DNA of 64,000 bases from an uncultured Planctomycetaceae bacterium (GTDB taxonomy: Bacteria; Planctomycetota; Planctomycetia; Pirellulales; Pirellulaceae), in the NCBI GenBank assembly GCA_937967665.1, contig CALBSZ010000696.1, positions 194-64,193 of the forward strand, read 5' to 3'. Position 1 is the first letter of the stretch. Every line of letters begins with the position of its first letter. This document shows positions 8,100 through 45,308 of this stretch, one piece after another. The notes under the pieces were generated by a model. It worked only from the letters and a program-made list of their open reading frames with translations. It searched no databases and was not told where the DNA came from. The position numbers were made by a program, and so were the translations under genes.

Positions 8100-8478
8100 A
8101 CCCGAACGAAGCTGGTGTCACTCCACCCAAGCGGACTGCTGTATCTCCTGTGGATGCGGCATAACCGTTGGTGCAACAATGATTGCATGTGCAACGGTTG
8201 CAAGAGCAAGCTTATCGCCTTTCAAGAGCGTGTGCAAGGGTGCGGTGCCGGCGGTTGAAGAGGACGCAGCTGTTTCTGTTGCGCTGGCGTCCGTTTGTGA
8301 AGGCCGTGCCTCTGTGGTGGCTTGAACGCGCGAGGTGAAACCACGAGGCGCGACTACCCCTCCGAACGATTGTATATTAAGGACAGGAGAGTGAGTTTCC
8401 GGATTGGACCAGGAGGCAGCTTCCACGGTGCTGACAACGCCCCCGGCCGCCCCCGCGTCAGACGCTGCCGCGGGCGGG

Positions 8479-8529
8479 AGGGTTGCACAACGCAGAGGGT
8501 TGCACAACGCAGAGGGTTGCACAACGCAG
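8479..8529. repeat. Perfect 3 x 17-bp tandem repeat (AGGGTTGCACAACGCAG)
   Basis: Counted base by base: 8479-8495, 8496-8512 and 8513-8529 are identical. It lies in a non-coding-looking stretch downstream of the sulfatase gene. Confidence 0.95.
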
Positions 8530-8708
8530 CACAGGATCGACACGCACGTTGAAGATGCGGAAGTTATTCTTGACTCATTACTGATGGTGGGAAGCGAGAC
8601 TTTCTTCCTGACCTTTTCTCGGAGATGTCGTTAGCGGATTTCCGACTCGGCAAGTCGCCAGGACTTTCGACGAGTGCCAAAGAGCGACAATCTTAGAGCC
8701 AGTCACTG

Positions 8709-10274
8709 CTATGGGAAGCGGCGCACCTTGACGTCGTTCTTCTGCGGTGGTCCTTGCGTGCTGCGACCGTTGGTGATGATTTCTTCCAGCAGTGCTTGCA
8801 TCTCCGAGAGGCGTTGGGGTTGCGCAGCGGCAAGGTTTTTGGATTCGCTGAGGTCCGTAGAAAGATCGTAAAGCTGCACCGGTTGGCTTTGGTCGCCGCC
8901 CTTGCCCCAGCCGCCGGAACCGCGAGCCGCGATGTATTTCCAGTTGCCGGCCCGCAAACTCGGCGTGCCGTTGATGGAACAACTGACCGCAGTCTCACGC
9001 ACGGGTCCATCTTCGCCTCTCATCAGTGGAAGAAGACTGAAGCTGTCCTCGCCGGCGTTGTCAGGCAAATCCGATCCCAGAATGTCTGCAATCGTGGCCA
9101 ACAAGTCGGCTTGATGGACGAGCTGGTCGTTAACGCTGCCTGCCTCCACAATGCCGGGCCAGCGGACAATGAAGGGGACGCGATGTCCGCCTTCCCACGC
9201 ATCGGCTTTGTAGCCCCGCAGAGGCCCGCTCGGGTAGTGACCTTTCTTTTCCAGGTCGGCCACACCGATGTACGGCGCGCAGCCGTTGTCGCTCGTAAAA
9301 ATGACGAGTGTGTTCTCTGCTGCTCCGCTTTCTTCCAAGGCCTCGAGCACCTGCCCGATAACCGCGTCCGTTTCCATGACGAAATCGGCGTAGAGGTTAA
9401 GGTCGCTCTTACCCTTCCATGGTTCGTTGACGGACAGAGGCGTATGGGGGGACGTGAACGGCAGGTAGAGCAGGAACGGCTGCGGCGTCTTCGCTTCGCG
9501 TTTGATAAATTCCGCCGCCCGCTCACCCAGGGCGGGCAGGATCGGTTCCAGTGTCCATCCCTCCAGCGCCGGCCCTTGCTGGCTCGCCTGGTTCTTGGCA
9601 AACAGCTTTGGATCGGCGTATTCGGAAGGAATGCCGACGGTACGATCGTTTTCGATGAAACAATAGGGGGGCCAGTTAGGTACGTCCGTGCCGAAGTATT
9701 CATCAAATCCGACCGCGGTCGGCCCACCCGGAATGGGTTGCGAGAACGCCTCACGCCACGCCGCACGATGCTCATCCGTCGCCTGGATGTTTTTCTTTCC
9801 GCGATAGCCGGTCGTCCGAAATAACGCTGCTTTGCCCGCGGGAATCGGCCAGTTCCAGCCAAGATGCCATTTACCAATGCAGGCGGTTTGATATCCATGT
9901 TGTTTCGCCAACGAGCCCAGGGTCATGCGGTCGGGCGTGATCAGCGGCGCTCCCCACAGCCCTACAATTCCGCGCTGCAATCGCGACCGCCAGTGATAGC
10001 GTCCGGTGAGAATCGTGTACCGGGAAGGCGAGCAGACACCCGACGACGAATGCCCGTCGGTGAAGCGCATTCCGTCCGAGGCCAGTTGATCGATGTGCGG
10101 CGTGGGTATCTTACCACGCTGCCTGTTGTAACATTGCACGTCGCCGTAACCGAGGTCATCGGCATACAGCACGACCATGTTCGGCCGTTCCGCGGCGCCG
10201 GCCAGCGTCGCAGCAAGGGCGAGAAGAAGCGGCAGCAGGAACGTGAGTAGTAGAGGTGCAGTTTTCTTCGTCAT
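8709..10274 (-). CDS. Arylsulfatase (formylglycine-dependent sulfatase family)
   Basis: PNMVVLYADDLGYGD followed by SSSGVCSPSRYTILTGRY (CxPxR FGly motif). I prefer the start MTKKTAPLLLTFLLPLLLALA (signal peptide) at 10274 over the ORF-track start at 10325. Confidence 0.9.
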   Translation of the reverse strand: MTKKTAPLLLTFLLPLLLALAATLAGAAERPNMVVLYADDLGYGDVQCYNRQRGKIPTPHIDQLASDGMRFTDGHSSSGVCSPSRYTILTGRYHWRSRLQRGIVGLWGAPLITPDRMTLGSLAKQHGYQTACIGKWHLGWNWPIPAGKAALFRTTGYRGKKNIQATDEHRAAWREAFSQPIPGGPTAVGFDEYFGTDVPNWPPYCFIENDRTVGIPSEYADPKLFAKNQASQQGPALEGWTLEPILPALGERAAEFIKREAKTPQPFLLYLPFTSPHTPLSVNEPWKGKSDLNLYADFVMETDAVIGQVLEALEESGAAENTLVIFTSDNGCAPYIGVADLEKKGHYPSGPLRGYKADAWEGGHRVPFIVRWPGIVEAGSVNDQLVHQADLLATIADILGSDLPDNAGEDSFSLLPLMRGEDGPVRETAVSCSINGTPSLRAGNWKYIAARGSGGWGKGGDQSQPVQLYDLSTDLSESKNLAAAQPQRLSEMQALLEEIITNGRSTQGPPQKNDVKVRRFP

Positions 10275-10324
10275 TTGTTTGGTCCCATTCCGAAATGGAT
10301 GCTCGACTTGGAGAGGGCGAGCCA

Positions 10325-11803
10325 CTAAGCCAGCAGTTCCTCAACGACATGACCATGGACGTCGGTCAGGCGATAGCGACGTCCCTGGTGCCGGTAGGTC
10401 AGACGCTCGTGATCAATGCCCAGCAGGTGCAGCAGGGTCGCCTGGAAGTCGTGAACGTGGACGCCGTCTTCGACCACGTTGTATCCGAATTCGTCGGTAC
10501 GGCCGTGTTGTGTGCCAGGCTTGATGCCACCGCCGGCCATCCAGATGGAGTAACAGCGAGGGTGATGGTCACGGCCGAAGTTGTTGCCGTTCAAGCGGCC
10601 TTGGCAGTAATTGGTGCGGCCGAATTCGCCCGCCCAGACGACCAGCGTGTCTTCGAGCATGCCGCGCTGGGCAAGGTCCTTAATCAGCGCCGCAGACGGT
10701 TGATCCGTTTCCGAGCACTGCTTACGAATACCGGCAGGCAGGCCGCCGTGCTGATCCCATCCCTGGTGGTAAAGCTGAATAAACCGCACGCCTCGTTCCG
10801 CAAGCCGACGGGCCAGCAGGCAGTTAGCCGCAAATGATCCAGGCTTGGCAACGTCCGGCCCGTAGGAATCGAGGGTCTCTCTGGTCTCTGCCGAAACGTC
10901 GAGGACGTCGGGAATCGACGTCTGCATCTGAAAGGCGAGTTCGTACTGAGCAATACGTGATTCGAGCAACGGGTCGGACTGCTCGCCCAACTGAAGCTGG
11001 TGCAAGGCTTCGAGTGCATCGAGCATTCGCCTTCGACTTGACCGATCCAGGCCGTCGGGGTTGTCCAAATACAAAACGGGATCCTTGCCGGATCGGAAGC
11101 GGACACCCTGATGGCGGGCCGGAATGAATCCGCTGCCCCACAACCGCGAAACCAGCGGCTGGCCGCCTTTGCCCTTGGTCACCATGACCACGAACGACGG
11201 GAGATCTTCATTGGCGCTGCCCAGTCCGTAGCTCAGCCAAGCCCCAATGCTCGGACGTCCGGGAAACTGGGAACCGGTTTGGATGAACGTCACGCCGGGG
11301 CCGTGGTTGATCGCTTCGGTATACATCGAATTCACAATGCAAAGGTGATCGGCAACTCCGGCCGTATGCGGCAGCAGTTCGCTGAACCACTGCCCGGAAT
11401 CGCCGTGCTGCCTGAATTTGAAGGGCGAACCAACGAGCGGAAGGCTCGACTGGTTGCCGCTCATGCCGGTTAGCCGCTGGCCTTTGCGCACCGAGTCCGG
11501 CAGCTGCTGTCCGTGGAGCTCGTTCAAGTGCGGCTTGTAATCCAACAAGTCGATCTGCGATGGACCACCGCTCTGGAAGAGGAAGATGACGCGTTTGGCC
11601 TTTGGCAGATGGTGGTAGTCCGCAAGGATGCCGCCGGTTGGTGGTAACGGGTTATTCCCCCTGGATTCGGAACTCAGCAGATCCACCAGTCCCAAGGCTC
11701 CCAGTCCCATCCCGAACTGTCCCAGAAATCCGCGCCGAGACATCCCCAGAGGGGATGCATATCCCGTGCATCGCGTGTCTGTCGGCTGGTGATTCATGTG
11801 CAT
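10325..11803 (-). CDS. DUF1501 domain protein (sulfatase-fold, Tat signal)
   Basis: Twin-arginine signal MSRRGFLGQFGMGLGALG, typical DUF1501 length, and a position directly downstream of a PSD1 gene. ATG at 11803-11801 overlaps the PSD1 stop (TAATG); 11797 and 11821 are alternative starts. Confidence 0.85.
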   Translation of the reverse strand: MHMNHQPTDTRCTGYASPLGMSRRGFLGQFGMGLGALGLVDLLSSESRGNNPLPPTGGILADYHHLPKAKRVIFLFQSGGPSQIDLLDYKPHLNELHGQQLPDSVRKGQRLTGMSGNQSSLPLVGSPFKFRQHGDSGQWFSELLPHTAGVADHLCIVNSMYTEAINHGPGVTFIQTGSQFPGRPSIGAWLSYGLGSANEDLPSFVVMVTKGKGGQPLVSRLWGSGFIPARHQGVRFRSGKDPVLYLDNPDGLDRSSRRRMLDALEALHQLQLGEQSDPLLESRIAQYELAFQMQTSIPDVLDVSAETRETLDSYGPDVAKPGSFAANCLLARRLAERGVRFIQLYHQGWDQHGGLPAGIRKQCSETDQPSAALIKDLAQRGMLEDTLVVWAGEFGRTNYCQGRLNGNNFGRDHHPRCYSIWMAGGGIKPGTQHGRTDEFGYNVVEDGVHVHDFQATLLHLLGIDHERLTYRHQGRRYRLTDVHGHVVEELLA

Positions 11804-36519: not shown

Positions 36520-38031
36520 TCACTTTTTTGACGGCGATAGCTGCCAGTTCGGATCGGGTTCGTGCAATTTGTTGAGCAGGTTTGTGGCGTGCTTGACCAG
36601 ATCGGGACGGCGCGGGGCGTAATTGTGATCTTCGTCGTGGTCCCACGACAGGTCGTACAATTCAATCTCGCCGGTGAACATCGGCGAGCGAATGGCCTTC
36701 CACTTGCCGAACCGCACCGCCTGCGACGAGCCTCGTTCGTAGAATTCCCAATAGAGGGGACTCTGGCGTTTCCACTTGTTCGGCTCGACGTGCCCGCGCA
36801 GCGCCGGCAGGAAGCTGTCGCTATCGATCCCCTCCGGCGCGTCGACACCGGCCATTTCGGCGGCGGTCCGCATCAGATCGCCAAAATACCAGGCCAGCTC
36901 GTTCTCGGTATTAGCGGCGACGGTGCCGGGCCACCAGGCGATGGTCGGCACGCGGATGCCTCCTTCGTAAAGATCCCTTTTGATGCCGCGATACTTGCCG
37001 TTCGAATCGAAATGATCGGCGCGATGGCCGCCTTCCTGGTGGGGGCCGTTGTCGGAAGTAAAGAGGACCAGCGTGCGATCATCAATCTCAAGCTCTTCCA
37101 GCAGATCCAGGATACGGCCTGTGTCGCGATCGATGTTGCGGATCATGGCGGCAAAACCTTTTTCCGGATCCGGCCAGTCGCGTGTGGAGAACTCGCCCAG
37201 TTCCGGCACTTCCATCCCCAGGTTCCCCGCTTCGTTGTTCGCATGGGGGACGTTCAGGGCAAAGTACAAGAAGAACGGACGCGCCTGGTTCTCCCGAATA
37301 AAATGCAATGCGTCTGCGGTGAACAGGTCCGGTGCGTACTGCACTCGTTTGACGGCGACGCCGCGTCCTCCCTGCGGCAGCTGCGGATCCTGCCACGGCA
37401 TCCACTTTTCGCCCACGACATTCTGCAGCGTTTCCACCTGGCCGTTCCGAATCAGGAATTCGGGATAGAAATTATGGGCGTGCCACATGTTGATGTAGCC
37501 GTAGAAATGATCGAAGCCGACGTCATTCGGGTTCGTCAGGTTATCGGGAGTCCCGATTCCCCACTTCCCAATGCAACCGGTGGCGTAGCCCGCGGATTTC
37601 AGCACCGAAGCGACCGTCGGCTGTCCGGGCTGGATGATCACCGGCGCCGTCGAATTGCCGCGTACGACTGTTCGTCCGCCGTGCCGGCCGGTCATGAGTA
37701 CACTTCGCGACGGCGCGCAGACCGTGCAACCTGCGTAGAATTGCGTAAACCGCATCCCCTCCGTCGCCATCTGGTCCAAGCGCGGAGTTTGTAGCGTCTT
37801 TTGCCCGAAACAGCCCAGGTCGCCATACCCCAAGTCGTCCGCCAGGATCACGATAATGTTGGGCCGATCGATCTCGGCGGCCCCTGCCGGCACCGCAGAA
37901 CCTGACGGTGCGCTGAGTCCCAGGATCCACACGATCGCTAGCTTGGCAAAGCGCCCCGCCGAACTCACTGAATGGGACTCACGGCTCATGGCCAGCGCCC
38001 CTGTCAAACGCCATCGAATCGATCCACTCAT
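36520..38031 (-). CDS. Arylsulfatase (formylglycine-dependent)
   Basis: PNIIVILADDLGYGD and CTVCAPSRSVLMTGRH (CxPxR) with a signal-like N-terminus. The start could also be the Met at 37989. Confidence 0.9.
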   Translation of the reverse strand: MSGSIRWRLTGALAMSRESHSVSSAGRFAKLAIVWILGLSAPSGSAVPAGAAEIDRPNIIVILADDLGYGDLGCFGQKTLQTPRLDQMATEGMRFTQFYAGCTVCAPSRSVLMTGRHGGRTVVRGNSTAPVIIQPGQPTVASVLKSAGYATGCIGKWGIGTPDNLTNPNDVGFDHFYGYINMWHAHNFYPEFLIRNGQVETLQNVVGEKWMPWQDPQLPQGGRGVAVKRVQYAPDLFTADALHFIRENQARPFFLYFALNVPHANNEAGNLGMEVPELGEFSTRDWPDPEKGFAAMIRNIDRDTGRILDLLEELEIDDRTLVLFTSDNGPHQEGGHRADHFDSNGKYRGIKRDLYEGGIRVPTIAWWPGTVAANTENELAWYFGDLMRTAAEMAGVDAPEGIDSDSFLPALRGHVEPNKWKRQSPLYWEFYERGSSQAVRFGKWKAIRSPMFTGEIELYDLSWDHDEDHNYAPRRPDLVKHATNLLNKLHEPDPNWQLSPSKK

Positions 38032-38562: not shown

Positions 38563-41500
38563 ATGCCACGAAGCCTGTCCAAGCAATTACGTCATCGCCA
38601 GAACGTGCGGCGCCTGCGATCCCTCCGACAAAGCCTGCAAATGGAATCCCTGGAAGCCCGTATGCTGTTGACCGCCTATGCTGATGCCGTCCTGGCGGAC
38701 AACCCGTTGGCCTTCTTTCAGTTTGACGAAGGCTCGGGAACGACGGCTAACGACTCGACGGCCAATGCAACGCATGGCAACATCGAAAACGCCACCTATT
38801 CACTCAATGGCGGAGGTCGCGGCGGTGACGCCGGTAACTACGCGCTGAGCTTCGACGGCAACGGAGACTCGGTTCGCGTGGTGGACGATGCTACCTCCGT
38901 GAACACGAATGCGTTCAATTCGATCACGGCCAACAACAAGGTCACGGTCGAATTCTGGCAATACGGGATCGGCCAGGCTCGCGACGACACAATCTTCGGC
39001 GGCTTCGACAGCAGCGGCAATCGTCAGGTCATGTCCCACCTGCCGTGGGGCAATAGCAATGTGTATTTCGATACGGGTGGTGGCGCGTCGACACCGAGCC
39101 AACGCATCAACACGGCCATGCCAGCGACGACCTTCAACGGGCGGTGGAATCATTGGGTCTTCATCAAGGACGGCAACAACAAGACGGTGTACAACAACGG
39201 TGTCGCCATACCGGCGCTGACGCAGTCCAATGCCACAGCAAACATCGGAGATATTCATCGCTTCTTTGTTGGAAGCGAAGCGAATTCGAGCGGCGGTATT
39301 ACCAACAGCTACCTTGGTTTGATCGATGATTTCGCCGTTTACGATAAGGCTTTATCCGCGGCGCAAGTGGCGGATCATTATCAGGCGAGTTTTGACGATG
39401 CCTTCGCCACGGACGAAGACACGGCGATCAGTGTCGATTCGTCTGTCGGCCTGCTGACCAACGATATGCCGCTGTATCGCTTCGAAAATGTCGCGTTGTC
39501 CAGCGCCGGCGGTGTCGCCTCACAATCCACCGATCGAGTCGGCAGCGGTTGCAATGTCGCGTCGTGCGCTATCGATGGCGATACCAACGGTAGTTTTGGC
39601 GGTAACTCCGTCACGCACACGCTTAACGAAACTCAACCTTGGTGGCAGGTGCAACTGCCGGCGATGCGTGACATCAATTCCATTAACTTGTTCAACCGCA
39701 CGGATTGCTGCAGCAACCGCCTGGACAACTTCCGCGTCTCCATCTGGCAGGGAGACCCGAATAGTGGCGGTGTCGAACAGTTCGGCCGCGATTTCTCATT
39801 CCCCGGCGGGCCGGGAACTTCTCTGTCGCTGGACGTCCCCAACTTTGTCAAAGGCAACTACGTTCGCGTGCAGTTGGCTAACGACGGGGAGAGCGAACCG
39901 CTGTCTTTGGCGGAAGTGCAGGTCTTTGCCGCGGCGCATGAAGTCGCTTCTGCCCAGGGCATGTCGTTGGGCGGCAGTACGACGGCCCGCGGCGACGGCT
40001 CGGTGACCGTCACAACCGACAAGGGTGGTTCGCTGACAATCACTGATGACGGCGGCTTTGACTATGATCCTTCCGTATCGTCAACGTTAAACACTCTTCC
40101 CGCCGGCGCCACGGATACCGACACATTCACCTATACCTACACCGATGGCACGTCCAGCCGTACGGCGACCGTCACGCTGACGATAACCGGTGTGAATGAC
40201 GCGCCTAATGCTGTGGACGACCCCAATGGCGGACTGCCCAATGCGGCATACACGACCACTGAAGACGCCGTGCTCAACGTTCCCGACGGCCCCGACGACG
40301 TGCTGGCCAACGACACGGACCCCGACACAGGCGATTCCATCAACCTTGTCACCTTCGACAGTACCAGCGTCAACGGCGCGGCGGTTGTCGTCAATCCTGA
40401 TGGCAGTTTCTCTTACGACCCGTCCGGTTCTGCGACGATCCAGACGCTTGACCAAGGTCAACCGCTGACGGATACCTTCACCTACACCATCACGGACTCG
40501 CTGGTACCGGCCAATGGTCGTTTCATCCGGGTCCGGAACAACGGCCCCGTAGATCGTTTGCTTCACATCGGTGAAATCGAAGCGTTTGCCCCAGGCGTGA
40601 CTCCAGCCGCCAACTTCGACGGGACCAACGATCTGGCGTTGAGTTCCAAAGGGGCTACGGTCGAATCGACCGTAGGGGGTGGCGGACATGGAAACCCGAA
40701 CGCCACCATCGACGGCAGTGAACAAACGGGTGGCTCGACCTGGACCAAACAGGCCGTCGGAACGGAAATTGTCATTGACTTGGGCGGATCGTTTGACATC
40801 GAACGCGTCCGCGTGCACCAGCGCAATGACAGTTGTTGCCAGGACCGCCTGATGGACTTCACCGTTTCCTTACTCGCCGACGACGGTTCCGGGAATCCAG
40901 GTGCTGTCGTACAGAGCGCCAGCTATCCCGGCCAGCCACCCACCAACTCGTTCGGTGAAGTCGCGCTGGATCCGGTGCCCTCGGGCGCCTTGCAAGTCGC
41001 CACGGTCAGCATTGCTGTCAACGGAGTCAATGATACCCCGAATCCGGCGGACGACGTGAACGACATCACCGAGTTGTCCGACGATACGGTCACCGTGAAC
41101 ACCGTCAGCGGTGACCTGTTCAGCAACGATACCGACGTAGACGATCCGGCAAGCTCCTTCAGCCTGGTACAAGTCAATGCGGACACCAGCGGAAACACAG
41201 TGGGGCTTTACGGCACGTTAACCTGGTCGCCCAACACCAACGGCGACGGAACCTACACGTATGCCCTGGACGATAGCAACGCGGCTGTGCAAGCGCTCGC
41301 CCCGGGGCAGACTCTCACGGACACGTTCACCTATACATTAAGCGACAATCATAGTGACGGCAGCGGCAGCAACAATCCACTTACCAACACCGCGAACCTG
41401 GTGATTACCATCAAGGGCGCTAACGATTCGCCGAATGCCGAGGACGATGCGGCCGATGTCATTGAAGACACCATGGTGACGACCGCAGGAAACGTCATTT

Positions 41501-44073
41501 CCGATGCGCCGGCCGACAGCGATGTCGACAATAGTTCGAGCGGCTTCGCGGTAACGGATGTCGATGGCAACGCGGTGAGCACTAATACGAACATTGTCGG
41601 CAGTCACGGCACGCTGACGATTTCGAGCGACGGCAGCTACAGCTACGCCCTGGACAACGCCGCCGCGCAACCTCTGGCTGAAGGCCAGACCGTAACGGAT
41701 AGTTTCGTGTACACGCTAGATGACAATGCCACAGGCCCGACGGTCGCCCGCTTTGTCCAGGTCATTGAGGCGACACCGAGTACATTCCACCTCAGCGAAC
41801 TCGAAGTTTTCGAAGCCGGCGTGACGCCCGATAACACGGGCGGCGCGACATTCGGTGGCCTGACTACCAGCAGCAACGACATCGCCGGCGGAGTGCCATA
41901 CAGCATAGGGAATGTGTATCCCGCGGTCGGCACGACGTCCATGATCCAACATGGCAATGTCAACAACCAGACAAACAATGTCCTGGAAAACGGCGGCGCG
42001 GTCTGGTCGACGAACGTCAGCGGTCAGAACCCGCAGTTCACGCTCGACCTGGGCAGCGAATATGCCATTGACCGTGTCCGCGCGTGGCCCCGTGCTGACA
42101 CTTGCTGTCCTGAACGCTGGGACGCTTTGACGATCAATTTCTATGCCGATGATGGCACGGGCAGCCCGGGAACGCTGGTGAGTTCCGTGAGTATCGCCGA
42201 TCCCAACGCAAACACCCCCCATGACGTCTCGGTGCCGGCCGTGCCGGTGCCGCTGACGGATACGGCTACGTTGACGGTCACCGTTACCGGATCGAACGAT
42301 GATCCTGTCGTCGATGCCGGCGGCGATCAGTCGGTGAATGAAGGTGCGACGGTAAACCTGGATCCGGCAACTTTCACGGATGTGGACACGAACGACACGC
42401 ACACGGCGACGATCGACTGGGGCGACGGCAGTCTGCTGGATACCGGAGTCGTGGAGCCGACCCTGCATACGGTATCGGGAAGTCATGTGTACGCCGACGA
42501 CGGCACTTATACGGCAACCGTGTGTGTTGACGACGGAACGGCGTCCGTCTGCGACACGTTCTCAGTGACGGTGAACAACGTGGATCCCAGTGTCACGGTC
42601 TCGGACCGCACGACTTCCGAGGGCGCCGCGCTGAACATTACGGGCCTGGCCACCTTTACCGATCCAGGTTTTGACAACGCCGCGAACCCGAACTCGCAAC
42701 CCCCGCTTCACGTGGAATCGTTCACCTACAGCCTCGACTGGGGCGACGGCTCCGCGCTGGAATCGGGCTCGGTCACGATGGTCACGCCCGGTTCGGCCGG
42801 GACACCCACCTCGGGCTCGATCAACGGCAGTCATGTCTACGCGGACAGCGGCGTTTACGACGCCACGGTGACGATCACCGACGACGACGGTGGGTCGACA
42901 ACGGAAACGTTCGGCGTCACCGTCAACAACGTGGCGCCAACCGGTACGATCAGCGGTCCCGGAGACGCCTCGCCATCGGAAGAACTGACGTTCACCTTCG
43001 AAGGCCACGACATCTCGCCCGCCGACGAGCTCATCCTGGATTGCAACGTCAACTGGGGCGACGGCAGCATGGACAGCCTGGGGAACTGCACGACCCCTGT
43101 GACGCGAACGCACGAATACGGCACGTTGGGATCGTTTTCCGTCGTACTGAGCATTACCGATGACACGGAAACGACCAACGTCACGCACACAGTAAGCGTA
43201 ACGAACAATCCGCGCATCGACGCGAACGGCAACTTGCTGGTGCCCGATTCGCTGGAGGGCAGCAACGACATTCTGATCTACAAGTCCAGTCGGGGCGGTC
43301 ACCTGGTGAAGCGTAACGCAACGACTTACGGTCCCTTCTTCCCGACAACAGGGACCACGGTGGTGATCACGGGCGACTACCCGGACCGGATTACGATCGT
43401 GTCCGACACACTGTGCGGCAACGTCGATGCCGGAGGCGGGGACAACATCTTCAACGGCAGCGGTTGTGACGATACGTTTGTGGCCACCGATGGCCGTAAC
43501 GTCGTAATTGCCGGTGCCGGAAACGACACGATCACCGTTGGCAACGGCGACAACGATATCGACGCCGGCGCTGGCGACGATGTCGTGACGACCGGTTCCG
43601 GCAACGACGAGATCATTGGACGCGACGGCAACGACGTGCTCAACGGCGGCGGCGGGAACGACGACATCTCCGGCGAAAGGGGCGATGACATCATCCGTGG
43701 CGGGGACGGTAACGACACGCTCAGCGGCGGAGAAGGCAACGACATCGTGCTCGGCGAGGCAGGGCAGGACCGAGTCTTCGGCCGACAGGGGAACGATATT
43801 CTGTTCGGCGGCCTGGGCGCGGACGACGTTCAGGGCAATAACGATGACGACATCGTGGTCGGCGGCGGCGTCACCTTGGACAACGTGGCGCTCGGTCATA
43901 TCCGCAGCGAGTGGACGAGCAACAATTTGGCGTCGACACGGTTGAGCAACATCCTGATTGGAGCCGGATTGACGATGGGCAACGCGCTCAATTCCACCAC
44001 GGTGACCGCGGACGGTGTGGGTGGGGGATGCGGTGTGGGCTCGTATTTGTATGTCGTGGAGGATCGGTTATGA
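38563..44073 (+). CDS. Giant secreted adhesin-like protein: ESLEAR leader motif, LamG, F-type-lectin/discoidin-like x3, cadherin/VCBS-like, PKD-like, RTX repeats
   Basis: 1836-aa ORF. N-terminus ...SLQMESLEARMLLTA. LamG-like region at ~38.7-39.4 kb. HT...PWWQVQL...NRTDCCSNRL at 39.6 kb, plus two degenerate copies. Repeated DTFTYT..D VCBS-type blocks. IDWGDGS...SHVYADDGTYT PKD-like units. 12-13 GxGxDxUxx nonapeptides near the C-terminus. Confidence 0.9.
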   Translation: MPRSLSKQLRHRQNVRRLRSLRQSLQMESLEARMLLTAYADAVLADNPLAFFQFDEGSGTTANDSTANATHGNIENATYSLNGGGRGGDAGNYALSFDGNGDSVRVVDDATSVNTNAFNSITANNKVTVEFWQYGIGQARDDTIFGGFDSSGNRQVMSHLPWGNSNVYFDTGGGASTPSQRINTAMPATTFNGRWNHWVFIKDGNNKTVYNNGVAIPALTQSNATANIGDIHRFFVGSEANSSGGITNSYLGLIDDFAVYDKALSAAQVADHYQASFDDAFATDEDTAISVDSSVGLLTNDMPLYRFENVALSSAGGVASQSTDRVGSGCNVASCAIDGDTNGSFGGNSVTHTLNETQPWWQVQLPAMRDINSINLFNRTDCCSNRLDNFRVSIWQGDPNSGGVEQFGRDFSFPGGPGTSLSLDVPNFVKGNYVRVQLANDGESEPLSLAEVQVFAAAHEVASAQGMSLGGSTTARGDGSVTVTTDKGGSLTITDDGGFDYDPSVSSTLNTLPAGATDTDTFTYTYTDGTSSRTATVTLTITGVNDAPNAVDDPNGGLPNAAYTTTEDAVLNVPDGPDDVLANDTDPDTGDSINLVTFDSTSVNGAAVVVNPDGSFSYDPSGSATIQTLDQGQPLTDTFTYTITDSLVPANGRFIRVRNNGPVDRLLHIGEIEAFAPGVTPAANFDGTNDLALSSKGATVESTVGGGGHGNPNATIDGSEQTGGSTWTKQAVGTEIVIDLGGSFDIERVRVHQRNDSCCQDRLMDFTVSLLADDGSGNPGAVVQSASYPGQPPTNSFGEVALDPVPSGALQVATVSIAVNGVNDTPNPADDVNDITELSDDTVTVNTVSGDLFSNDTDVDDPASSFSLVQVNADTSGNTVGLYGTLTWSPNTNGDGTYTYALDDSNAAVQALAPGQTLTDTFTYTLSDNHSDGSGSNNPLTNTANLVITIKGANDSPNAEDDAADVIEDTMVTTAGNVISDAPADSDVDNSSSGFAVTDVDGNAVSTNTNIVGSHGTLTISSDGSYSYALDNAAAQPLAEGQTVTDSFVYTLDDNATGPTVARFVQVIEATPSTFHLSELEVFEAGVTPDNTGGATFGGLTTSSNDIAGGVPYSIGNVYPAVGTTSMIQHGNVNNQTNNVLENGGAVWSTNVSGQNPQFTLDLGSEYAIDRVRAWPRADTCCPERWDALTINFYADDGTGSPGTLVSSVSIADPNANTPHDVSVPAVPVPLTDTATLTVTVTGSNDDPVVDAGGDQSVNEGATVNLDPATFTDVDTNDTHTATIDWGDGSLLDTGVVEPTLHTVSGSHVYADDGTYTATVCVDDGTASVCDTFSVTVNNVDPSVTVSDRTTSEGAALNITGLATFTDPGFDNAANPNSQPPLHVESFTYSLDWGDGSALESGSVTMVTPGSAGTPTSGSINGSHVYADSGVYDATVTITDDDGGSTTETFGVTVNNVAPTGTISGPGDASPSEELTFTFEGHDISPADELILDCNVNWGDGSMDSLGNCTTPVTRTHEYGTLGSFSVVLSITDDTETTNVTHTVSVTNNPRIDANGNLLVPDSLEGSNDILIYKSSRGGHLVKRNATTYGPFFPTTGTTVVITGDYPDRITIVSDTLCGNVDAGGGDNIFNGSGCDDTFVATDGRNVVIAGAGNDTITVGNGDNDIDAGAGDDVVTTGSGNDEIIGRDGNDVLNGGGGNDDISGERGDDIIRGGDGNDTLSGGEGNDIVLGEAGQDRVFGRQGNDILFGGLGADDVQGNNDDDIVVGGGVTLDNVALGHIRSEWTSNNLASTRLSNILIGAGLTMGNALNSTTVTADGVGGGCGVGSYLYVVEDRL
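43513..43863 (+). repeat. RTX-type calcium-binding nonapeptide repeats (12-13 consecutive units) within the giant CDS
   Basis: In-frame split into nines: GAGNDTITV GNGDNDIDA GAGDDVVTT GSGNDEIIG RDGNDVLNG GGGNDDISG ERGDDIIRG GDGNDTLSG GEGNDIVLG EAGQDRVFG RQGNDILFG GLGADDVQG NNDDDIVVG. Confidence 0.85.
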
Positions 44074-44183: not shown

Positions 44184-45308
44184 ATGATGGCTCGCTTCAC
44201 CGTCGCGCTGTTTCTTTCCGCGACCGCCGCCGTGGCGTCCGCGCACACAACCGGCCGGACCGAGCCGTGGCCCGCCGGTACCCAGCAGGCGCCCGCCCGC
44301 GTCCCCGACGATACTCCGCAACTGCCTTCGCTAATCGAAACGGACAACCCGCCAACACGGGATGGCTGGCAGGCACGCCGCGCGCAAATCCAGCGTGAAT
44401 GGCTCGAGTTCCTTCATCCATGGACGAAGGAGCGTCCGCGTTCTTCCTGGGAAGTGCTGAACACGGAACAGGTTGGCGACGTCGAGCGGGTGCTGCTGCG
44501 CTACGAAACGGAACCTGGCATCTTCACGGAAGCCTACCTCTTGCACCCGAGGCAGCGAGGAGAGTCTCGCCCGGGCGTCGTGGTCTTTCATTCCACGGTG
44601 GATCACTCGATCCGGCAGCCCGCGGGCGTCGAGGGCGTTCCGGAAAAGGCATTCGGGTTGAAGCTGGCGCAACGCGGCTACGTCACCTTGTGCCCGCGTA
44701 ATTTCCTCTGGCCGGACAATCACCGGATCGACGCGGCCGAGCAGACTCGGTTGTTTCAGCAGCGCCATCCTGGCTCGAAAGGGATGGCCAAGATGCTGCA
44801 TGACGCGCACCGCGCGGTCGATCTTTTGATTTCCTTTCCGGACGTGGACAAGAACCGCATCGGCGCGGTCGGTCACTCGCTGGGTGCCAAGGAGGTGCTG
44901 TACCTGGCGGCGTTCGATCCGCGGGTGAAAGTGACGGTTTCCAGCGAGGGTGGTATCGGCACGACGTTTTCCAATTGGGATGCGGCTTGGTATCTGTCGC
45001 CGGACATTCGCAACGGCGTTTTCCCACGCGAGCACCACGAGCTGCTGGCGCTGATTGCGCCGCGACCGTTCCTGTTGATTGGCGGCGAATCGGCCGACGG
45101 GGACCGCAGCTGGCCATATATTGACGCCGCGCTGCCGGTGTACCGACTGTTCGGTGATCGCCCCGCCTGTGGACTCTACAACCATCGGCAGGGGCACGCC
45201 GTTCCCAAAGGTGCTGAAGAACGCATCTATGATTGGTTTGACGCCTACCTGGGAACGGACGCGGGAAATGAGCAGCACATCGAGAATCGTCATAACGATC
45301 GCAATTGA
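44184..45308 (+). CDS. Secreted alpha/beta hydrolase (dienelactone hydrolase / acetyl-xylan-esterase-like)
   Basis: Signal MMARFTVALFLSATAAVASA and nucleophile elbow GHSLGAKE (GxSxG). Later Asp and His candidates (GGESADGD, NHRQGHAVP). GGAG RBS. Confidence 0.75.
   Translation: MMARFTVALFLSATAAVASAHTTGRTEPWPAGTQQAPARVPDDTPQLPSLIETDNPPTRDGWQARRAQIQREWLEFLHPWTKERPRSSWEVLNTEQVGDVERVLLRYETEPGIFTEAYLLHPRQRGESRPGVVVFHSTVDHSIRQPAGVEGVPEKAFGLKLAQRGYVTLCPRNFLWPDNHRIDAAEQTRLFQQRHPGSKGMAKMLHDAHRAVDLLISFPDVDKNRIGAVGHSLGAKEVLYLAAFDPRVKVTVSSEGGIGTTFSNWDAAWYLSPDIRNGVFPREHHELLALIAPRPFLLIGGESADGDRSWPYIDAALPVYRLFGDRPACGLYNHRQGHAVPKGAEERIYDWFDAYLGTDAGNEQHIENRHNDRN

Follow-up and report, generated by a model that had tools for sequence, protein, structure and literature searches.

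The 64,000-nucleotide window analysed here (assembly GCA_937967665.1 of an uncultured Planctomycetaceae bacterium, contig CALBSZ010000696.1, positions 194 to 64,193) contains an open reading frame (ORF) of 1836 codons (38563..44073, + strand). Its 1836-amino-acid (aa) product is probably a giant calcium-dependent multivalent adhesin of lectin type, with one canonical F-type lectin domain (FTLD) and two circularly permuted FTLDs (cpFTLDs) as heads nested in the repeats of a stalk (Table 1). From the N-terminus onwards, it consists of a leader, a LamG domain, a host repeat with the FTLD inserted (domain 1) and a second host repeat with a cpFTLD inserted (domain 2); there follow an intact cadherin-like repeat, a further host repeat (repeat 4) with the other cpFTLD (domain 3), three PKD domains and RTX repeats. 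An earlier note, made from the sequence alone, had described one F-type lectin motif and two degenerate copies, to which the permutation and the nesting in cadherin-like repeats are additions. What is new is the cpFTLD family, a variant on a fold that was already known, and its nesting. Nothing sets domain 1 apart as more than a further FTLD; such domains in Planctomycetes, Verrucomicrobia and other bacteria are listed in Bishnoi et al. 2015 (Glycobiology 25:888), according to PMC5712786.

Domain 1 is a genuine canonical FTLD with a complete His/Arg/Arg triad, the vicinal Cys-Cys pair and the calcium motif. The fucose-binding signature H-x26-R-x-D-x4-[RK] lies exactly where the earlier note had placed it, and a regular-expression scan finds no second match in the protein (aa 352–386; HTLNETQPWWQVQLPAMRDINSINLFNRTDCCSNR). 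That note also took the x26 spacing for the published one. This holds for the residue numbers given in two reviews (His52, Arg79 and Arg86; PMC5712786, PMC12221842) and for MsaFBP32 (3CQO), which is also x26 in a gap-free alignment to domain 1, although the same reviews print the signature as HX24RXDX4(R/K). Given the composition of the protein, 0.0027 matches are expected by chance and 6 of 5000 shuffles contain one, but ~1.5 bare matches are expected over all six frames of the window. The bare signature is therefore weak on its own, and it is the domain-level evidence that makes it real.

This evidence comes from sequence and structure searches alike. Pfam models PF22633 and PF00754 match aa 300–460 above cut-off (61.8 and 38.7 bits), and a phmmer search of all PDB chains with domain 1 returns six matches, all of them FTLDs (3CQO, E = 8.5e-28; 2J1R, 1.7e-17; 2J22, ~2e-17; 3LE0, 3e-15; 4GWI, ~4e-15; and AAA, 1K12, 9.5e-14). 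The triad, the Asp and the Cys-Cys line up without gaps with MsaFBP32, and C382-C383 directly follow the Asp as do Cys82-Cys83 of AAA, a pair whose role is described in PMC5712786. The AlphaFold2 (AF2) model of domain 1, built from a 10-sequence alignment, has a mean predicted local distance difference test score (pLDDT) of 85.1 and a predicted template modelling score (pTM) of 0.85. It superposes on AAA, MsaFBP32, SpX and lectinolysin: the best 11 Foldseek matches are all FTLDs (E = 1e-11 to 4e-10, TM 0.77–0.81, root-mean-square deviation 2.5–2.8 Å), several of these structures contain fucose or Lewis antigens, and CBM32 modules rank after the FTLDs. Two checks suggested in the earlier note, a domain-model search and a superposition on AAA, thus both gave positive results. 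Domain 1 is 74% identical to its counterpart, and the FTLDs of a paralogous giant protein of the same genome share 72% and 58% identity with it. Its most likely ligand is terminal α-L-fucose or a look-alike sugar.

Domains 2 and 3 are, as judged from sequence profiles and a structural model, circularly permuted FTLDs in which the two strands that usually come last stand at the N-terminal end. PF00754 covers them only over the first ~60% of the model, and this partial coverage is explained by the permutation. The canonical last strands (YVRV...LSLAEVEVF) are missing at the end of each domain and are found ahead of it (RFIRV...HIGEIEAF type; RFIRVRNNGPVDRLLHIGEIEAF in domain 2 and RFVQVIEATPSTFHLSELEVF in domain 3). 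When domain 1 is compared with a doubled domain 2, an end-to-end alignment (5–152) is obtained only across the junction, with 29.1 versus 23.5 bits, and when the first 30 residues are moved to the end the PF00754 match grows from 3–74 to 3–114 in domain 2 and from 13–75 to 13–110 in domain 3. A canonical FTLD profile matches the permuted copies of nine proteins as two swapped stretches (e.g. profile positions 93–152 followed by 4–122), and a profile seeded with domain 2 matches 19 copies end to end. Searches of PDB with single domains 2 and 3 by phmmer give only marginal or spurious matches (the designed beta-propeller 'Bagel' and plant leucine-rich-repeat kinases), and an 18-copy cp profile recovers FTLDs first (4GWI, E = 7.9e-11; 3CQO, 6.9e-10; 1K12, 7e-6). 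In the FTLD chains with printed alignments, profile positions 53–126 correspond to chain positions 16–95 and positions 2–31 to 121–149. The AF2 model of the 158-aa domain 2 unit is a single compact domain (pLDDT 94.6, pTM 0.90; N-terminal strands pLDDT 92–97) whose strands are those modelled for domain 1, in rotated order. At 78% identity to the copy in a paralogue, domain 2 is conserved to the same degree as domain 1.

The earlier note was right that the triad His is missing from both domains and that an additional residue precedes the last Arg. Five residues (x5, not x4) separate the Asp from the last Arg both in domain 2 (HQRNDSCCQDRL) and in domain 3 (WPRADTCCPERW), and the His position is taken by Trp727 in domain 2 ('TWT' for the canonical 'THT') and by Trp1148 in domain 3, at x28 before Arg1177. 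TIDGS of domain 2 fits the calcium motif h2DGx and QTNNV of domain 3 does not. The domain 3 subtype (WPRADTCC..RW) is common to the relatives P0054, P0190 and P0243.

The conservation of these positions was counted in 103 full-length copies; these come from 75 proteins, which are relatives or representatives of clusters at 50% identity. In domain 2 numbering, R105 is kept in 102, D107 in 96, C109 and C110 in 101 and 102, R113 in 101 and H60 of the dipeptide 'HG' in 94; the canonical-His position holds Trp in 72 copies, Phe in 10, Tyr in 7 and His in 7. Of the copies, 75 have the extra residue ahead of the Cys-Cys, and the other 28 have the x4 spacing. At the calcium motif, D68 is Asp in 59 and Asn in 39, and G69 is Gly in 79. 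The 'HG' stands opposite THG in the alignment with MsaFBP32 and opposite AHG in that with lectinolysin, and probably corresponds to the His27 position of AAA in the C6-methyl pocket. A pocket kept except for the replacement of His by an aromatic residue argues, from conservation, for a working site with altered specificity and not for decay, and the two domains probably work as glycan binders whose specificity is not for L-fucose.

A HMMER scan of 1.84 billion cluster representatives with the cp profile gives 4306 matches at E ≤ 1e-3 and 1158 at E ≤ 1e-10, counts that take in canonical FTLDs. Among the best 150 matches, 67 cover the whole profile in permuted order, 31 of them as a single copy. 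With nine tandem canonical copies that had been read across the junction removed, 94 cp copies in 66 proteins are left, of which 33 copies begin within 70 aa of the protein N-terminus; 22 of the 66 proteins have a PEP-CTERM-like tail. Some proteins of ~200 aa contain, after a signal peptide, a single cpFTLD followed by a PEP-CTERM tail (e.g. Oceaniferula spumae BDS07094.1, annotated as 'hypothetical protein'). These single-copy, N-terminal and stand-alone cpFTLDs indicate that the permuted order is the native domain boundary. Pfam gives partial PF22633 matches to the small proteins, some of them under cut-off, and NCBIfam has no model for the domain.

The cpFTLDs occur in Planctomycetota, Verrucomicrobiota and Omnitrophota. 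Loci with the full unit are found in Pirellulaceae, Rhodopirellula, Neorhodopirellula pilleata Pla100, Fuerstiella, Phycisphaeraceae, Brocadiia, Verrucomicrobiales, Kiritimatiellia, Pontiellaceae and Omnitrophota; a few are in metagenome-assembled genomes labelled Alcaligenaceae, Rhodobacteraceae and Nealsonbacteria, which are possibly mis-binned. In a tree of de-permuted cp and canonical copies, a branch with support of 94 sets 93 of the 102 rows labelled cp apart, and the other nine are tandem canonical FTLDs read across the junction. The labels cp and canonical change 11 times in this tree, where inspection shows these nine copies and one tandem cp copy in canonical register; once this is allowed for, the cp copies form a single clade, which fits a single origin. 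An origin by tandem duplication would fit the head-to-tail copies of the relative P0005. In that protein (aa 564–1043; locus L043), three cpFTLDs follow one another in a single hairpin of one cadherin-like repeat, an array that can be read in either register and resembles a duplication intermediate from which a permutant could arise.

The insertion of the lectin domains was traced with a profile of the stalk repeat, for which 1688 uninterrupted cadherin-like repeats were taken from 108 relatives without lectin domains. The profile match is split at each of the three lectin domains and the full repeat is regained when the insert is skipped; the host repeats are also matched by Pfam and NCBIfam as cadherin-like/VCBS (PF17803, TIGR01965). 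In host repeat 2, the C-terminal match covers aa 790–832 (profile 80–122), of which the meaningful part is the last strand after domain 2 (ATVSIAVNGVNDTPNP); the last strand of host repeat 4 is TDTATLTVTVTGSNDDPV. Permuted copies in other giant proteins share their flanks, TDTFTYT..D before and ATV.V.V.GVNDAP after, so that it is the repeat's last hairpin that takes up the insert. The evidence for nesting is the listing of flanks together with the profile split; a nested-context regular expression, which was too strict, matched just 8 copies. The new termini of the permutant probably lie close together, because they fall in a hairpin of the canonical fold, and such adjacent termini would suit insertion into a beta-hairpin.

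Canonical FTLDs of the relatives P0003 (aa 542–710) and P0007 (aa 1124–1291 and 1719–1886) are situated between the first strand 'TDEDTAL.V' and 'LLxNDTD', unlike domain 1, which is placed after 'LLTND'. From these differing sites the stalk repeat accepts lectin inserts at a minimum of three loop positions. P0007 also has another, unassigned insert of ~200 aa in the hairpin used elsewhere by cpFTLDs (aa ~1330–1560 and ~1925–2150), with motifs 'GGGNDKWCC' and 'HQLGELEFFG', the second of which suggests a further discoidin-like variant.

Table 1. Features of the giant lectin gene and neighbouring genes of interest, in window coordinates. Profile positions are those of the cadherin-like repeat profile.
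Feature	Coordinates	Strand	Basis
Multi-lectin giant protein (predicted surface/secreted), 1836 aa	38563..44073	+	ORF, Pfam/NCBIfam, repeat profile
Arg-rich leader with ESLEARMLL (LEARMLL at 38650-38670)	38563..38697	+	Sequence
Laminin_G_3 (ConA-like), aa 111-270	38893..39372	+	PF13385, 54.7 bits
Host repeat 1, N-terminal piece, aa 275-302, profile 5-33	39385..39468	+	Repeat profile
Domain 1, canonical FTLD, aa 305-458	39475..39936	+	Pfam, PDB phmmer, AF2, Foldseek
AIDGD, aa 336-340, fits FTLD calcium motif h2DGx	39568..39582	+	Motif definition of PMC5712786
Fucose-binding signature H352-x26-R379-x-D381-C382-C383-x2-R386	39616..39720	+	Regular-expression scan, PDB alignment
Host repeat 1, C-terminal piece, aa 481-553, profile 46-121 (insert: domain 1)	40003..40221	+	Repeat profile
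Host repeat 2, N-terminal piece, aa 553-646, profile 1-94, ends TDTFTYTITD (insert: domain 2)	40219..40500	+	Repeat profile
Domain 2, predicted cpFTLD, aa 650-807	40510..40983	+	Profiles, AF2, de-permutation
RFIRVRNNGPVDRLLHIGEIEAF, aa 653-675, last two strands of canonical FTLD, here first in domain 2	40519..40587	+	Profiles
Trp727, exactly x26 before Arg754, position of canonical triad His	40741..40743	+	Alignment
HQRNDSCCQDRL, aa 752-763, R-x-D-x-CC-xx-R block of domain 2	40816..40851	+	Regular expression, alignment
Host repeat 2, last strand, ATVSIAVNGVNDTPNP	40984..41058	+	Repeat profile
Repeat 3, uninterrupted cadherin-like/VCBS, aa 839-962, profile 15-121 (internal control)	41077..41448	+	Repeat profile
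Host repeat 4, N-terminal piece, aa 958-1060, profile 5-100 (insert: domain 3)	41434..41742	+	Repeat profile
Domain 3, predicted cpFTLD of second subtype (WPRADTCC..RW), aa 1060-1229	41740..42249	+	Profiles, de-permutation
RFVQVIEATPSTFHLSELEVF, aa 1063-1083, permuted strands of domain 3	41749..41811	+	Profiles
WPRADTCCPERW, aa 1175-1186, R-x-D-x-CC-xx-R block of domain 3	42085..42120	+	Regular expression
Host repeat 4, last strand, TDTATLTVTVTGSNDDPV, aa 1232-1250, profile 100-118	42256..42312	+	Repeat profile
PKD domains (three)	42295..43212	+	PF18911, 3 stretches
RTX calcium-binding nonapeptide repeats, aa ~1623-1770	43429..43872	+	PF00353, 77 bits, 4 stretches
Alpha/beta-hydrolase, 374 aa (DLH/glucuronyl-esterase-like), 110 nt past the stop of the giant gene	44184..45308	+	Pfam
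Sulfatase, divergent from the giant gene	36520..38031	-	Pfam; neighbouring gene
Second sulfatase	8709..10325	-	Pfam

In the proposed arrangement, the cadherin-like/VCBS stalk would bear three sugar-binding heads, each inserted in a loop of a repeat such that it would project sideways. Head 1 (aa 305–458) would use His352, Arg379, Arg386, Asp381, Cys382-Cys383 and AIDGD as its fucose-binding apparatus. In heads 2 and 3, the move of the last two strands to the front would bring the termini next to each other, as fits insertion in a beta-hairpin, and the putative pocket keeps the Arg, Asp, Cys-Cys, Arg and 'HG' with Trp in place of the triad His. A broader proposal, which we advance tentatively and rate a little short of an even chance, is that the cpFTLDs are an undescribed family of lectins in the Planctomycetota-Verrucomicrobiota-Omnitrophota group, with a single origin, probably by tandem duplication, in which exchange of the His for a stacking Trp gave a new glycan specificity. 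The family would then have two deployments, one in small PEP-CTERM surface proteins, where it is the only head, and the other as a plug-in module in the hairpins of giant adhesins.

Several observations weigh against this overall interpretation. The leader of the presumed surface protein has no hydrophobic h-region and is not a classical signal peptide, and a scan of the window's ORFs of 200 aa or longer found no type I secretion genes (ABC transporter, membrane fusion protein or TolC). A Foldseek search of PDB with the cp model gives no significant match (best 6EON, E = 9e-3, TM 0.43). This null result is expected because the aligner depends on sequence order, and it is not read as a new fold, but sequence profiles and the succession of secondary-structure elements are then the basis for assigning the cpFTLD fold. 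In domain 1 the hydrophobic-pocket residues His27 and Phe45 of AAA are not kept, and the loops that line the C6-methyl pocket differ, with a Cys-x4-Cys loop (GSGCNVASC) at the place of THGAAYN in MsaFBP32. The domain might have the FTLD fold and triad with a ligand other than fucose, for instance a methylated or 6-deoxy sugar such as 3-O-methyl-galactose, or be mainly structural. AAA also binds 3-O-methyl-D-galactose and 3-O-methyl-D-fucose (PMC5712786), and yet the full-triad FTLDs among the PDB and Foldseek matches are all fucose binders and the triad, Asp and Cys-Cys align with them gap-free, so that we consider this alternative unlikely, though not negligible. That domains 2 and 3 are degenerate copies, as the earlier note had called them and as the missing His, the extra residue and the Pfam coverage might suggest, is very unlikely. 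The R-x-D-(x)-CC-xx-R block is kept in 96–102 of the 103 copies (~98% overall; R105, C109, C110 and R113 in 101–102), 'HG' persists in 94 and 89 have an aromatic residue where the His would be; confidence in the AF2 model is very high, and the domain stands alone in small secreted PEP-CTERM proteins. Least probable of all is that the apparent permutation is a tandem canonical array read in shifted register. Tandem arrays of the P0005 and P0089 type can be matched in either register, and the nine copies removed above were exactly of this kind, but both copies in the window are single, the strands that flank them belong to cadherin repeats and not to other lectin copies, and no YVRV...EVEVF follows the last strand (FGEVALD). 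Together with the 31 single-copy representatives and the 33 copies that start right after the signal peptide, this is hardly compatible with such a reading, and for the window copies the artefact is ruled out by the cadherin flanks, the split of the repeat profile and the stand-alone cpFTLD proteins.

The earlier note had also proposed attachment to sulfated fucans, and a larger version of this idea makes the giant protein part of a system that captures and degrades fucoidan with the help of nearby sulfatases. Two sulfatases and a PSCyt/PSD1–DUF1501–sulfatase run are indeed present in the window by Pfam, one sulfatase lying 530 bp upstream of the giant gene in divergent orientation and the second 28 kb away, and domain 1 has the complete fucose triad. 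The cpFTLDs are also found in Kiritimatiellia, Pontiellaceae and Verrucomicrobiales, groups that include degraders of sulfated polysaccharides. However, the 8.7-Mb assembly (92% complete) has ~115 sulfatase (PF00884) matches, such that ~0.85 are expected per 64 kb and the two seen are near background (Poisson P(≥2) ~0.2). No glycoside hydrolase, fucosidase or fucose-pathway or catabolism gene is present in the window, and no GH29 fucosidase in the assembly, in which GH95, GH141 and GH107 were not searched for. No sulfatase lies within 10 kb of the homologues P0007, P0028 and P0005, and a fucosidase or fucoidanase co-located with sulfatases and conserved with the lectin gene was not found. Two reviews (PMC5712786, PMC12221842) describe characterised FTLDs as binders of α-L-fucose and fucosylated glycans, and binding to internal sulfated fucose is not reported in either. 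The link to sulfated fucans is weak and not supported by these comparisons, and a fucan-degrading system is improbable. We favour the calcium-dependent lectin adhesin as the reading of the gene.

The Arg-rich leader, which lacks the hydrophobic core of a signal peptide, has an LE.R..L motif that recurs in the homologues P0003, P0007, P0028 and P0097. The motif in the giant protein and these homologues follows (L/V)E.LE.R.(L/V)L(A/D/T), with variants ESLEARMLLTA, ESLENRIVLDA, EALEARQLLAT, EDLEQRVLLAT and ENLEERRVLA, and it may be a dedicated export signal. Towards the C-terminus, the giant protein contains the GGxGxD nonapeptide repeats of RTX substrates of type I secretion. The paralogous giant protein is encoded on contig C463 (~8333–9505, - strand; loci L002 and L003, proteins P0003 and P0006), a short contig on which it appears split into open frames of 305 and 1706 aa in this assembly, and contains two cpFTLDs besides FTLDs. 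The alpha/beta-hydrolase gene downstream of the giant gene may be co-transcribed with it. Other genes in the window include a type II secretion system-like operon, SelO, a halogenase, an insertion sequence, a phosphate transporter and a biotin synthase-like gene.

F-type lectins are used as fucose probes and are studied as virulence and immunity factors. The cpFTLDs occur widely among the bacteria that dominate the turnover of marine polysaccharides, but they are annotated as 'hypothetical' or matched by Pfam only in part; a dedicated profile would better annotate at least the 66 proteins with clean full-length copies and probably many more. They are a natural experiment in lectin specificity, with the fucose pocket mostly kept and the key His replaced by Trp, and if the broader proposal above is true they would rank among the chief modules with which these marine polysaccharide specialists recognise glycans. 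The new termini would explain how a lectin head is plugged into a stalk hairpin, and this would be a clear instance in which permutation makes domain nesting possible. A literature search pairing circular permutation with F-type lectin, discoidin or CBM32 gave nothing relevant, which with incomplete coverage is weak evidence of novelty. Neither permutation of FTLDs nor their nesting in cadherin-like repeats is mentioned in PMC5712786 or PMC12221842, and the string 'permut' occurs 0 times in the latter, a review of 2025.

The closest known systems are the FTLDs of AAA from eel (1K12), MsaFBP32 from striped bass (3CQO), SpX-1 and SpX-3 of S. pneumoniae (2J1R, 2J22) and lectinolysin of S. mitis (3LE0, 3LEI, 4GWI). 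Domain 1 resembles these at 31–35% identity with the H-x26-R-x-D-CC-xx-R signature and the h2DGx motif, but differs in its pocket loops and in being nested in a cadherin-like repeat of an 1836-aa planctomycete protein. Bacterial FTLD proteins likewise combine single or replicated FTLDs with other domains, as far as the survey of Bishnoi et al. 2015 is recounted in PMC5712786. The CBM32, F5/8 type C (discoidin) and NedA-like domains belong to the same jelly-roll superfamily, and PF00754 and PF22633 match all three lectin domains of the giant protein; these domains have the canonical strand order and lack the R-x-D-CC-xx-R signature, and the CBM32 of AlyQ (7D29) is the first match of the cp profile outside the FTLDs. 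Domains 2 and 3 share with the reference FTLDs the equivalents of Arg79, Asp81, Cys82-Cys83 and Arg86 as well as the 'HG', with profile E-values down to 8e-11, and differ from them in their rotated strands, in the Trp that replaces the triad His and, usually, in the extra residue between the Asp and the Cys-Cys.

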